NCBI GenBank assembly: GCA_016188175.1
Contig: JACPII010000099.1
Coordinates: 1-40,368, forward strand
Source: Candidatus Woesearchaeota archaeon
Lineage (GTDB): Archaea > Nanobdellota > Nanobdellia > Woesearchaeales > JACPBV01
Direction of reading: 5' to 3'
Length of the DNA: 40,368 bases
Shown here: positions 19,416-31,416 of the stretch, piece by piece
How positions within the stretch are numbered: position 1 is the stretch's first letter
How the letters are laid out: every line of letters starts with the position of its first letter
The notes under the pieces: model-generated
Told to the model about the DNA's origin: nothing
The model's database searches: none
What the model saw: only the letters and a program-made list of their open reading frames with translations
Translations under genes and position numbers: made by a program

Positions 19416-20423
19416 TCACTCAAATTCCCCCAGCGCAGCCTTCCCATACCCCTTCGCTTTTTCAAGCAGTGCGTCCTGGGCTGCTTTGATGTTGGCATCG
19501 CTGCCATTCCATGCCTTTAACGCTGCCCTCTGAAGCGCCCTCCCATAAGAAAAAGTTAATTTCCAGGGGAGCTGGCCCTTGAATTTTTTGTTCATCTCGT
19601 TGAGGTTGCTTGTTGCCGATTCATCGCTCTGGCCGCCGGAGAGGAACGCGATCCCGGGAACTTTCGGGGAGACCAACTCCTTAAAGCATGTGACGGTCAA
19701 ATCTGCAACCTTTTCCGGGGTTGCCTGGTCCGGGCAGGAAGATCCGGAGACAACCATGTTTGGCTTTAAGACCATCCCTTTCAGGTCAACTTTTAATCCT
19801 TTGAGCTCTTTGAACACCGACGCAAGCGTTTGTGCGGTGGCTTCGAGGCATTTTTCGATTGCATGGCTCCCGTCCATCAGCACCTCGGGCTCAACAATCG
19901 GGGTGATATCTGCTTCCTGGCACAATGCAGCATAGCGCGCCAATGCATGGGCGTTTGCCTTGATGCAGGCTTTTGTGGGAATAGCATCTCCGATGGCTAT
20001 CACGGCGCGCCATTTTGCGAACTTTGCGCCCAATGACCGGTACTCCTGCAATCTCTCCCGCAGGCCGTCCAATCCTTCCGTTATCGTTTCGTTGGAGAAC
20101 AGGGCAAGCGGCTTAGCGCCCTTGTCCACCTTTATGCCGGGAAGAATCCCCTGCTGCTCGAGGAGCCTTGGGAATGGAATTCCATCGGCCGTCTTTTGCC
20201 TGATGGTCTCATCAAAAAGGATTGCACCAGAAATGTAATCCCCCAACCCCGGAGCGGTTATGAGGAGCTGCCTGTATTTCCTCCTGTTCTCCTCAGTATT
20301 TTCAACACCGATTTCCTTAAAGCGCTTTTCAATCGTGCCGGTGCTTTCATCCATCGCAAGTATCCCTTTTCCGCCGGCGACCATCGCGAGCGCAGTCTTC
20401 CTGACCTCTTTTGTCATGTGCAT
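19416..20423 (-). CDS. fba: fructose-bisphosphate aldolase, class I
   Basis: GKGILAMDESTGTIEKRF N-terminal signature and full-length class I aldolase pattern (335 aa). Confidence 0.9.
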   Translation of the reverse strand: MHMTKEVRKTALAMVAGGKGILAMDESTGTIEKRFKEIGVENTEENRRKYRQLLITAPGLGDYISGAILFDETIRQKTADGIPFPRLLEQQGILPGIKVDKGAKPLALFSNETITEGLDGLRERLQEYRSLGAKFAKWRAVIAIGDAIPTKACIKANAHALARYAALCQEADITPIVEPEVLMDGSHAIEKCLEATAQTLASVFKELKGLKVDLKGMVLKPNMVVSGSSCPDQATPEKVADLTVTCFKELVSPKVPGIAFLSGGQSDESATSNLNEMNKKFKGQLPWKLTFSYGRALQRAALKAWNGSDANIKAAQDALLEKAKGYGKAALGEFE

Positions 20424-22066: not shown

Positions 22067-22267
22067 TAGGAAAGGACATCACTTTAGTTTGAATAAAGAT
22101 ATTCCATCAGTTTTTAACTTATGGTGTAATCCTGCCGGAAATGTAGCGGGAATATCTTTATTCTCAGAAATCCGACCGAGCGACCGGAGGGAGCGAGCAA
22201 TCCCCCCATCTATGACGGGGGTGTCGGATTTCTGTTGAAAACATACGAAAATTAATGTCCTTTCCTA
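22067..22267 (+). ncRNA. ~200-nt multi-helix structured element of unknown class (three-way junction); strand uncertain
   Basis: Closing helix TAGGAAAGGACAT (22067-22079) / ATGTCCTTTCCTA (22255-22267). Perfect 15-bp hairpin GAATAAAGATATTCC (22091-22105) / GGAATATCTTTATTC (22149-22163). 12-bp hairpin CAGAAATCCGAC (22165-22176) / GTCGGATTTCTG (22223-22234). No ORF and no flanking direct repeat. Confidence 0.5.
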
Positions 22268-22299: not shown

Positions 22300-23400
22300 C
22301 TATCTTTTTTTCCACCTTCCACAGCTTACTAATAAATATGGGGGCACATCTAGATGGGATTCATTCAGCCATCCGATATATCTTTTAAGGACGTTGTGAA
22401 CAGTTTTGAGATGACATCCCAACAGATCTGCAGCTCGTGTTCTATTCCCATCACTTTCACGTAATGCCTGATCTATCAGGAGAAACTGAATTTTATTGTA
22501 ACCGACTGTCGTACAATATTCCATAAGGTTCCGAATAGCTTTTCGCCCATTTGATAAATCCCCTTCGGGAGTCCCTGCAAGAACAGGATCCGGAAGAGCA
22601 TCCGCCCTTATCGTGAAGTCTTCCCCCATCAGGATTACTGCTCGCCCAACAATGTTTTTTAGCTCCCTGACATTTCCGGGGAAGGAATAGGATTGAAGAA
22701 TTTCGAGGAATCGTTTATCTACCGTGACGGGTTTCCCATCGATATCAACCCTCGGGGATTCTTCGTAAATACCCGAAACCTTGGCGACTCCCAGGGTGGG
22801 GCGGTACTCATTGAGGAATAGCTTGACGAAATGATATACTAATGGCCTAATATCCCCGGGCCTCTCTCTCAGGGGCGGTATACTTATCCCAAATTCGTTC
22901 AAGCGATAGAAAAGGGCGTCAATGAGGGTTCCATCCTCTTTCCCACCTGGTAGATTCTTACACGTTGCAGCCACAATCCTAACATTAAATGTGGAGGATG
23001 CTGCGCTTCCCACCCTGTAAAATTCCCTCTGCTCCAGAGCCCTCAATATTTTTCGCTGGGATTCAACGTCCATGTCTCCAATTTCATCGAGAAAAATTGT
23101 GCCGTCGCCAGCCCCCTCAAATAGCCCCGCCCTATCCCTCAAGGCACCGGTATAGGCACCATGGACACTGCCAAACAATTCAGACTCTACAAGGGTGGGT
23201 TGTATGGCGGTGCAATTGACGGCAACAAACGGGCTATCTCTACGGCCGCTAAATCGGTGGATAGCTCTTGCAACAAGCTCTTTTCCTGTCCCCGTTTCAC
23301 CGGCGATAAGGACGTTCGCATCAGTTGGAGCAACCTTGCGGATATATTCAATAACATCGCCCCCCATCGTCCCAACAATCCCATCAATTGTTTCTGGCAT
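22300..23400 (-). CDS. sigma54-interaction-domain AAA+ activator (bacterial enhancer-binding-protein type) with C-terminal Fis-type HTH and no N-terminal sensor domain
   Basis: Walker A GETGTGKE, ESELFG, GAFTGA-type loop (GAYTGA), Walker B GTIFLDEIG, R-finger region QRKILRALEQREFYRVG, sensor II VRELKN, and HTH NRTRAADLLGCHLKTVHNVLKRY. Confidence 0.85.
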   Translation of the reverse strand: MPETIDGIVGTMGGDVIEYIRKVAPTDANVLIAGETGTGKELVARAIHRFSGRRDSPFVAVNCTAIQPTLVESELFGSVHGAYTGALRDRAGLFEGAGDGTIFLDEIGDMDVESQRKILRALEQREFYRVGSAASSTFNVRIVAATCKNLPGGKEDGTLIDALFYRLNEFGISIPPLRERPGDIRPLVYHFVKLFLNEYRPTLGVAKVSGIYEESPRVDIDGKPVTVDKRFLEILQSYSFPGNVRELKNIVGRAVILMGEDFTIRADALPDPVLAGTPEGDLSNGRKAIRNLMEYCTTVGYNKIQFLLIDQALRESDGNRTRAADLLGCHLKTVHNVLKRYIGWLNESHLDVPPYLLVSCGRWKKR

Positions 23401-23569
23401 CAGGGAAGGGATTTATGAAATTATTATAAGCCTTTCCATTATATTTAGGCTCGGGATAGGAAAGAACCCTTAGCGGACTTCAGTCCGCAGTAGTTTAGAA
23501 TGTTTTAGTATGTGCTTATCCATTTAGGATAATCCTTTCCCAATAACGACCAGTTCCCCTATAATTTTC

Positions 23570-28343: not shown

Positions 28344-29303
28344 ATGCCAGTCAAAAAGGTTATTTTAGCAGGCCCCCGGGGCTTCTGCGCGGGTGTAGAA
28401 AGGGCTATCAGGATAGTTGAAGACTGCCTTTCGCTGTTTGGCCGGCCGGTCTATATTAAGCATGAGATTGTCCATAACAAGCATGTTGTCGAAGACCTTG
28501 CGAAAAAAGGGGCAATAACGATTGAGAGTGTCGATGAAGCTCCCCCCCATGCAGTTGTTATCTTCTCCGCCCATGGCAGCCCGCCCGAGCAGTACCGGAT
28601 AGCAAAGGAAAAAAACATCCGGCTTATTGATGCCACCTGCCCGTTAGTCACTAAAGTCCACTTCGAGGTCCATAGGTTTGCAGGGGACGGCCACAAAATA
28701 ATCTATATCGGCCATAAAGGCCACGTTGAGGGGGTTGGCGTTCTGGGAGAATTGCCGGGCCAGATATCCCTTGTCGAGTCTGTTGGGGATGTAAAAAATC
28801 TTGATATCGGAAATCCTGAAAAACTGATCTATCTTACCCAAACAACATTGAGCATTGATGAAACAAAAGCCATCGTTGCTGAACTGAAGAAAAAATACCC
28901 CCAGATGAGGGACCCCCCAAAAGAAGACATATGCTATGCCACGACAAACCGGCAGACTGCGATTAAAAAGCTGGCTGGTGGCGTTGATGTTGTCTTTGTC
29001 GTCGGCTCGAAGAACTCCTCCAATTCTATCAGGCTCGTTGAAACAGTTCATGCCTTGGGGAAGCCTGCCTATCTGATCGACAATGTTGAAGACATCATGC
29101 CTAACTGGCATTCTGAAGCGAACGTTGTTGGGATCAGCGCCGGGGCAAGCGCGCCGGAAAACCTCGTTCAGGAGATTGCCGAATTTTTTGTTCGCCAGGG
29201 AGCAGTCAAGGAAGAGTTTTCTTTAATGAAGGAAGAGGTATATTTTATCGACCCGCTGGAGCTGAGGAATGCGAAAGCCAAGGGAAATATAAGCAGGCGA
29301 TAA
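28344..29303 (+). CDS. ispH: 4-hydroxy-3-methylbut-2-enyl diphosphate reductase (IspH/LytB)
   Basis: PRGFCAGVERAI N-terminus, three-domain LytB pattern, conserved Cys positions and SKNSSNS. Confidence 0.92.
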   Translation: MPVKKVILAGPRGFCAGVERAIRIVEDCLSLFGRPVYIKHEIVHNKHVVEDLAKKGAITIESVDEAPPHAVVIFSAHGSPPEQYRIAKEKNIRLIDATCPLVTKVHFEVHRFAGDGHKIIYIGHKGHVEGVGVLGELPGQISLVESVGDVKNLDIGNPEKLIYLTQTTLSIDETKAIVAELKKKYPQMRDPPKEDICYATTNRQTAIKKLAGGVDVVFVVGSKNSSNSIRLVETVHALGKPAYLIDNVEDIMPNWHSEANVVGISAGASAPENLVQEIAEFFVRQGAVKEEFSLMKEEVYFIDPLELRNAKAKGNISRR

Positions 29304-30127: not shown

Positions 30128-30360
30128 TGCTCCGCGGGAGATAGCCAAACGTACCAATGATGATCCCCGCAATGTCAGTTCCCGGATTTGTTACGGCCTG
30201 GAGCAATTAAGGAAGGAGCTTTCAGGGCTTGAACCCAATTTTTTTGGATGATTATCTAACCCGGTAAATTCTCTGCCTCTCCTCGGATTTTCTATGGGTA
30301 GTTATAAAAATTCATTGATTGCATCGTTCCATCAACCGTTCATTTCCAGGTCTAGAAACT

Positions 30361-31416
30361 ATGCCCAGCTCAAAACCAATCGCTCAAGTTATCCGAAAGC
30401 TTACCGTTAAAGGTAAAAACGTCCTTGCCGCCGATGAAAGCAAAAAAACAGTTACCGAGAGGTTTGAAAGGAAAGGCATTCCTCCGACAGATGAAAACAT
30501 CAGGCTGTACCGGGAATGGATTGTAACTACTCCTGGACTTGAGAGGTACGTCAGCGGAATAATCCTTTTTAAGGAAACGTTGGAACAGGCCGGCAGCCAC
30601 GGGAAACCATTCGTTGAAACTCTCCATGAAAAGGGCATTGTCATCGGAGTAAAATCTGATGAAGGGCTTTACAAGCCCGCGGGATGGGGTGAAAATATCA
30701 CCCAGATGGAGAGCCCCAGGAAATTGTTGGAAACCCTCAAGAGATACAGGGAAACGCACGGTGTCCAGTTCACCAAATGCAGGTCATTGTTTTCCATCGG
30801 CCCAAACACCCCCTCAAACCGTGCGATTGACATCAATGGGGCGATGATGGCGCTCGACGCTCTTGTTTCCCTGGAAGCTGGGCTTTTTCCTATTGTTGAG
30901 CCGGAGGTTGAGCGTGCCGGAACCCACACCATAGACCAGTGCTCATCTTATGCCATTGCAGTATACTCGCGGCTGAATGAGAAGCTCAGGCAGTATGGTG
31001 CAGCAATTTCCGATGTTGGAATCAAAACAAATTTTACCGTCCAGGGTGCAGATTGTGGCGGTACAATACCTCCCCGTGAAGTTGCCAAAATGACGTTTCA
31101 GGCTCTTGCAAAAGGATTTGGGTTCTACGGCGTTGAATCAATCTCCATTTTCTTCATGCTGTCCGGAGGCTTGGATGACCTGCCCTCGGGCCAATATCTC
31201 CATGAATTGAACCGGTTTGTTGAAAAAGGCCCCTTTGCAAAAGAAAAAACTTTCATGGCTTCTTATTCCAGAGCAATGCTGGACAAGGCTTTGGATGTTT
31301 GGGCAGGAAACCCAAGGAATGTTGAAAAGGCCCAAAAGAAGCTGTTGGAGCGCGCCAAGGCATTCAGCGAAGCAAGGCAGGGGAGATTGGATGTTAAGGA
31401 TTATAATTGGGCTTAA
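30361..31416 (+). CDS. class I fructose-bisphosphate aldolase-like protein (divergent second copy)
   Basis: GKNVLAADESKKTVTERF signature and collinear similarity to the aldolase at 19416-20423. Start set at ATG 30361. Confidence 0.75.
   Translation: MPSSKPIAQVIRKLTVKGKNVLAADESKKTVTERFERKGIPPTDENIRLYREWIVTTPGLERYVSGIILFKETLEQAGSHGKPFVETLHEKGIVIGVKSDEGLYKPAGWGENITQMESPRKLLETLKRYRETHGVQFTKCRSLFSIGPNTPSNRAIDINGAMMALDALVSLEAGLFPIVEPEVERAGTHTIDQCSSYAIAVYSRLNEKLRQYGAAISDVGIKTNFTVQGADCGGTIPPREVAKMTFQALAKGFGFYGVESISIFFMLSGGLDDLPSGQYLHELNRFVEKGPFAKEKTFMASYSRAMLDKALDVWAGNPRNVEKAQKKLLERAKAFSEARQGRLDVKDYNWA

Follow-up and report, generated by a model that had tools for sequence, protein, structure and literature searches.

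What defines bacterial enhancer-binding proteins (bEBPs) is that they depend on sigma54, which is itself bacterial, and we asked what such a protein might do when an archaeon encodes it. The gene in question lies in a 40,368-nucleotide stretch of DNA (the window), which is contig C14 of a Woesearchaeales bin (1.64 Mb, 75% complete, 0.22% contaminated). An earlier reading made from the DNA letters alone (the sequence-only reading) had described a complete bEBP central domain without a sensor in an archaeal host, and had explained it as a recent bacterial import or as a protein re-purposed, for example, for RtcR-like control of RNA repair.

A sigma54 activator without an input domain

In Pfam profile searches, the protein matched the bEBP family PF00158 over residues 15-172 (E 1.6e-58), AAA_lid_14 over residues 222-280 and HTH_8 over residues 308-341, the last of which bears out the Fis-type helix-turn-helix (HTH) that had been read from the sequence (Table 1). 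An AlphaFold model (mean pLDDT 80) had structural matches to FleQ, NtrX, ZraR and NtrC1. Thus, the Sigma54_activat AAA+ domain and fold expected of a sigma54 activator are present, as are Walker A, Walker B and sensor II. The protein shows no apparent signal peptide or membrane segment. The L1 loop, which contacts both sigma54 and the promoter (PMC7175178), is full length and carries GAYTGA in place of GAFTGA, a variant also seen in 5 of 127 bacterial relatives; PspF F85Y still binds sigma54 region I fragments, in a different manner (PMC3467059).

Since Walker A begins at residue 34, after 33 residues, and an in-frame stop lies 4 codons upstream of the ATG, no input or sensor domain is possible, in agreement with the earlier estimate of a start about 30 residues before Walker A. 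We considered that a sensor might have been separated from the gene by a frameshift and rejected this idea: the 122-aa ORF upstream has no family match, and the intergenic DNA contains the TATA box and a repeat. The insertion before sensor II, previously put at about 40 residues, is smaller, as the lid spacing of 65 compared to a median of 44 (119 database matches) leaves about 21 residues. It was modelled as three short strands, and similar insertions occur in several archaeal relatives.

The description of the central domain as complete held for Walker A, Walker B, ESELFG, the GAYTGA loop and sensor II, but not for the arginine finger. In the RxDxxxR motif, R166 alone is left (R160 is Ile and D162 is Ala), and the residue after the sensor-I Thr, normally Asn (N147), is Cys. 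Bacterial relatives share 62 positions at an invariance of 90% or more, of which the window copy retains 56; R160, D162, N147, F159 and W240, each conserved in 90% or more of the bacterial relatives, are lost. The RxDxxxR motif is intact in 65 of 65 bacterial and 28 of 32 archaeal copies, and the damage is therefore a property of the window copy. In PspF, this motif comprises R162 and D164 (with R168), and substitutions drastically reduce ATPase activity and give constitutive hexamers, with R162A retaining a reduced, unproductive interaction with sigma54 (PMC3419264). Because the equivalents of R162 and D164 are lost, we predict that the ATPase of the window bEBP is weak. A compensated frameshift behind the damage was not evident in the DNA, and the matching Logan contig, which may share the same reads, is identical.

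Table 1. Features of the bEBP locus (window positions) and loci of mini-sigma54 proteins (positions within each locus)
Feature	Position	Strand	Remarks
Sensor-less sigma54-activator (bEBP) gene, 366 aa	22300..23400	-	ORF, domains, fold; identical 1230-bp Logan contig
Archaeal TATA box CTTATAA	23424..23430	-	Starts 30 nt before ATG; preceded by purine-rich BRE-like stretch
Walker A, residues 34-41	23278..23301	-	Intact
ESELFG and L1 loop GAYTGA (sigma54-contact loop), residues 72-86	23143..23187	-	Phe-to-Tyr variant
Walker B, residues 103-106	23083..23094	-	Intact
Degenerate RxDxxxR 'R-hand', residues 160-166	22903..22923	-	R160I and D162A; R166 kept
Lid insertion of ~21 aa, approx. residues 204-227	22720..22791	-
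Sensor II, residues 242-246	22663..22677	-	Intact
Fis-type helix-turn-helix, residues 308-341	22378..22479	-	PF02954, E 2.5e-7, above cut-off
Structured dispersed repeat (putatively MITE/REP-like)	22067..22267	.	53 loci in genome
Second dispersed repeat, 55-bp palindrome	23444..23498	.	Upstream of promoter
Mini-sigma54, L071	1498-2280	-	Archaeal contig
Mini-sigma54, L090	1513-2325	-	Archaeal contig
Mini-sigma54, L091	41-742	-	Archaeal contig
Mini-sigma54, L051	1048-1995	+	Archaeal contig

A native gene with an archaeal promoter

The archaeal host argued earlier from the neighbouring genes was upheld by L10e-family and ZPR1 genes on the window contig and by a TBP gene in the bin. Candidatus Woesearchaeota is the label on a protein encoded by a genome from this bin's family. 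The intron-containing tRNA cited alongside them was not recovered; neither ARAGORN (default settings) nor Rfam reported a tRNA in the window, and a multi-intron tRNA could escape such searches. TATA-like motifs in this genome peak at -30 (67 of 466 upstream regions), which is the position of the bEBP TATA box. Codon use of the gene is low yet within range (9th percentile), and the tetranucleotide profile of C14, proposed earlier as a check for chimerism, is among those closest to the bin mean. A Logan contig carries the same 1230 bp, with both ends inside the flanking repeats. We conclude that the bEBP gene is a native gene of the archaeon with an archaeal promoter and that chimerism is unlikely.

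The element downstream of the gene at 22067-22267 had been noted as structured and possibly related to the bEBP. It does fold strongly (z -5.7) and has no Rfam match, but it recurs at 53 loci across the genome; as a genome-wide repeat it is not a dedicated partner of the bEBP, and its many copies tie the bEBP gene to the bin. This repeat is modular, some copies having inserted or tandem hairpin modules (e.g., C72:10006-10500). The palindromic repeat upstream of the promoter has 16 further matches on 12 other contigs; we take it to resemble the end hairpins of IS200/IS605-type elements.

An archaeal family of bEBPs

With a threshold of E below 1e-15, a search of 400 genomes from the order yielded 21 with a bEBP relative, and a search of 400 high-quality genomes from the phylum yielded 26 (5-7%, or about 1 in 16-20), seven of the latter carriers belonging to another order of the class. 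We excluded, as possible contaminants, five copies whose contigs are short or look foreign, including the sole receiver and GAF copies, which lie on contigs of 1.7-4.5 kb and have no neighbours like those of the window bin. None of 40 archaeal bEBP loci contains an internal stop. Most of the genes are flanked by archaeal core genes, some on contigs of 0.7-1.5 Mb, and they sit as single insertions between unrelated core genes; around them we found no conserved neighbour, linked partner regulator or target operon.

Two properties mark the archaeal copies. First, at most 90 in-frame residues precede Walker A in 26 of 32 archaeal copies compared to 2 of 65 bacterial loci (Fisher P = 1e-15, a value that overstates the contrast because kin are not independent), and six archaeal copies with longer N-termini have no Pfam sensor family. 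Second, the [F/Y]T of the L1 loop is kept in 30 of 36 archaeal copies, and its Thr in 94%, despite a mean pairwise identity of 39%; the loop has drifted in 6 of 36, which form one clade. Retention of invariant residues is 87% in the archaeal copies compared to a median of 98% in bacteria. Viral contigs, too, are richer in sensor-less copies, which make up 9 of 42 IMG/VR bEBPs (versus the 2 of 65 bacterial loci). The nine (L207, L209, L216, L218, L223, L229, L239, L249 and L261) could be viral or flanking host DNA. In the GenBank phage collection, the top matches have the look of cellular genes.

The named relatives of the window bEBP come from Woesearchaeota and Nanoarchaeota, and it clusters with two proteins, P0185 and P0206 (SH-aLRT 95). 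P0185 is 42% identical and has the same C-terminal tail as the window copy, together with most of the insertion; its neighbouring genes have homologues in the window bin, most of them 41-59% identical. The P0206 gene adjoins genes for tRNA intron endonuclease and FEN1, and its cluster mate is labelled Nanoarchaeia. Comparisons of orthologues gave dN of 0.3-0.65 with dS above 1 or saturated, and by this measure the family is shown to be under purifying selection; one close allele pair (L032/L269), with just 2 differences, added nothing to this. A recent bacterial import is thus contradicted by archaeal nearest relatives with the same C-terminal tail, by saturated synonymous sites and by the archaeal promoter. 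Synteny in related genomes, which the sequence-only reading had recommended examining, points the same way: the genes have archaeal core-gene neighbours, and the order trm61-bEBP-GNAT recurs in at least four genomes, two of them from different families, which shows that this subfamily is inherited vertically. In the window bin, the trm61/GNAT slot is occupied by other genes.

Outside the archaeal family, the best database matches are 40-51% identical, which likewise speaks against a recent import; the best bacterial matches, at 36-51% identity, are scattered over many phyla and point to no one donor. In quick trees, the archaeal copies fall in scattered positions (6-15 changes) on long branches, but a single archaeal clade is not rejected by an AU test (p-AU 0.98, with the constrained tree better by 57 lnL), a result to which attraction of long branches may contribute; we claim neither one origin nor several. 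Control of RNA repair in the manner of RtcR does not fit either, since the window bEBP shares the AAA+ core alone with RtcR, has no CARF domain and no rtcAB or other rtc genes nearby, and scores 238 with the RtcR model (cut-off 650).

Several variants were seen within the family. In one clade (L021, L024, L028, L029 and L080), the Fis HTH has been lost or exchanged; three members have a C-terminal region of ~200 aa in its place, and the member searched (L021) gave no Pfam match. The clade with the drifted L1 loop (L036, L082-L085, L088, L089 and L078) belongs mostly to family f95; it includes three paralogues in one genome (G589), and four of its copies adjoin a similar Asn/Asp-tRNA-synthetase-like gene. 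Another genome (G172) has tandem bEBP genes (L054:3-608, cut by the contig end, and 662-1750).

Sigma factors in carrier genomes

We found no rpoN domain (PF04552, PF04963 or PF00309) in the 75%-complete bin, as the sequence-only reading had expected of an archaeon, and the -24/-12 promoters that were to be sought with it are at chance level in the genome (2 and 26 motifs observed; 0-2 and 18-23 simulated). Similarly, the sigma54 DNA-binding domain was not found in 33 of 36 carrier genomes. The other three encode proteins of 233-315 aa, which we call mini-sigma54, with a sigma54 DNA-binding domain but no Pfam core-binding match; of the four listed in Table 1, three have an RpoN-box-like end, and a region-I-like start can be made out by eye. 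Such proteins occur in 5 of 401 genomes of the order (one probably on a bacterial contig), with further matches in L115 and L116, and none was found in the 75%-complete window bin. One mini-sigma54 gene lies 7.5 kb from a bEBP gene (G477, contig C15), and one relative is annotated as a hypothetical protein at NCBI. Genes for sigma70 are common, and their coupling to bEBPs was not significant (23 of 36 versus 20 of 44, P = 0.12).

Discussion

PspF of E. coli and HrpR/HrpS of Pseudomonas syringae likewise have an AAA+ domain, a C-terminal HTH and no input domain, with the L1 loop and the same fold; they coexist with sigma54 and are held down by PspA and HrpV, respectively. The window bEBP differs from them in its archaeal host and in its 21-aa insertion and degenerate R-hand, and we found no rpoN or linked partner for it; the PspF model scores 215 on it (cut-off 444). 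It is a PspF-like bEBP by fold and architecture, with a degenerate RxDxxxR motif and no cognate sigma54 found in the 75%-complete bin. Two further precedents bear on its function. Removal of the sensor from DctD yields DctD250, which is constitutively active and, acting from solution, turns on foreign sigma54 promoters (PMC3844500); unlike the window bEBP, DctD250 is engineered, has no HTH, is catalytically intact and acts inside a bacterium. Conversely, the bEBP fold is used without sigma54 by Caulobacter and Rhodobacter NtrC, VpsR and NtrX, and in such sigma54-independent proteins the GAFTGA loop tends to be deleted or shortened while the receiver domain is retained (10.1101/2023.06.06.543975). 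The archaeal bEBPs show the reverse pattern, with the loop kept and the sensor lost.

Bacterial initiation factors are not new in these archaea. Castelle et al. (2021; PMC8204110) describe sigma-70 genes of DPANN (fam00359) as orphans with unknown function in Woesearchaeota, and the window bin has one too; the passages searched make no mention of sigma54 or enhancer-binding proteins ("enhancer" and "Fis", 0 occurrences). NCBI automatically annotates bEBP-type proteins in Woesearchaeota, and the titles and abstracts of the open literature, which exclude subscription papers, yielded no paper treating archaeal bEBPs. The present analysis contributes figures for how prevalent the family is, the contrast in sensor loss, evidence on synteny and selection, the defect in the R-hand, and the mini-sigma54 proteins.

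The best reading, to which we give a probability of roughly 0.38, is that the protein is putatively an always-on activator or a decoy aimed at the sigma54 of a bacterial host. The window bEBP is encoded by the archaeon itself behind an archaeal promoter and belongs to a DPANN family without input domains, and by analogy with DctD250 such an AAA+ ring would be always on and promiscuous. Because most carriers lack a detectable sigma54 and yet the contact loop is kept, the most likely substrate would be sigma54-RNA polymerase in a bacterial cell, host or prey, reached on contact. Most family members would then switch on host sigma54 promoters; the window copy, judging from the PspF mutants, would form rings, touch sigma54 and hydrolyse ATP poorly, and might serve as a decoy or damper, or else be at the onset of decay. 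Some Woesearchaeota are proposed to be episymbionts of bacteria and carry unexplained sigma70 genes (PMC8204110), and we also count the frequency of sensor-less copies on viral contigs in favour. Against action on a host, we count the damaged ATPase motif of this copy, the lack of an apparent signal peptide or membrane segment, the non-significant sigma70 coupling and the retention of a Fis HTH that action from solution, which needs no host enhancer, would not require. Loop drift in 6 of 36 copies and the weaker retention of invariant residues fit relaxed selection. We identified neither a delivery system nor a bacterial host, and no lytic transglycosylase was found in the 75%-complete bin; moreover, all cultivated DPANN have archaeal hosts (10.1101/2023.02.24.529834). 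More doubtful is the extension that sensor-less activators, damped decoys, mini-sigma54 and sigma70 make up a DPANN kit that reprogrammes the transcription of bacterial hosts. If so, it would amount to cross-domain transcriptional hijacking and to sequence evidence for sigma54-bearing bacterial hosts.

We considered, as the strongest of the alternatives but less probable than the best reading, that the protein has a sigma54-independent role at home, either as a nucleotide-dependent scaffold whose Fis HTH binds the archaeon's own DNA and represses or activates TBP/TFB promoters, or as a ring that remodels another protein. Such a role would suit the archaeal promoter and the HTH above the Pfam cut-off, would make delivery unnecessary and would lessen the cost of R-hand loss in the window copy; its bacterial precedents work on sigma70 promoters, and some of them do so without hydrolysis (10.1101/2023.06.06.543975). 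These precedents, however, delete the L1 loop and keep the sensor, the opposite of what the archaeal bEBPs do, and the single insertions between unrelated core genes, with no conserved neighbour or operator, as well as the replacement of the HTH in one clade, argue against it.

Less likely still is that the window copy, or the whole family, is slowly decaying cargo, acquired horizontally and without current function. Patchy presence (5-7%), long branches, the five lost residues and codon use at the 9th percentile are consistent with decay, but each of the 40 loci is an open frame, the window copy keeps its promoter and 56 of 62 invariant positions, orthologues show purifying selection, and the trm61-bEBP-GNAT position is held in at least four genomes. 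That the bEBP forms a self-contained module with an archaeal mini-sigma54, whose gene would lie in the quarter of the genome left unassembled, is improbable: three of 36 carriers do have such a protein, once 7.5 kb from the bEBP, but it was not found in the bin or in 33 of 36 carriers, many of them near complete (e.g., G468, 2 contigs, 96%), several mini-sigma54 genomes have no bEBP, there is no excess of -24/-12 motifs, and the proteins have no Pfam core-binding or activator-interaction match. An assembly chimera or bacterial contaminant is by far the least probable explanation, for while the Logan contig ends within both repeats, so that the joins to the flanking genes are without separate confirmation, both repeats are multi-copy in the bin, the TATA box is at -30, contamination is 0.22%, the nearest relatives are in archaeal contexts, and C14 is close to the bin mean in tetranucleotides.

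A selected family of bEBPs in some 30 archaeal genomes, mostly without sigma54, would be either a tool for manipulating hosts, as we favour, or a new use of an AAA+ ring. The family makes testable both the hosts of uncultured Woesearchaeota and the role of their bacterial-type sigma genes. Unlike sigma70 homologues, bEBPs can be put to an unambiguous yes/no test with a sigma54 reporter in E. coli, for which intact, R-hand-deficient (the window copy) and loop-drifted members provide natural controls.

Other bacterial-type genes in the bin

The window contig carries two class I fructose-bisphosphate aldolase genes (19416-20423 and 30319-31416) and further bacterial-type genes, namely IspH (28344-29303), AroK/AroC and a likely GroES/GroEL pair; imports of such bacterial-type genes are reported for Woesearchaeota (PMC8204110). 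The bin's sigma70-like gene (L073:296-1099 and 1150-2316; C49) is split into a 267-aa frame with region 1.2 and a 388-aa frame with regions 2-4. Since Logan contains a 667-aa protein from the same 90% cluster, this split is a frameshift or an assembly error.
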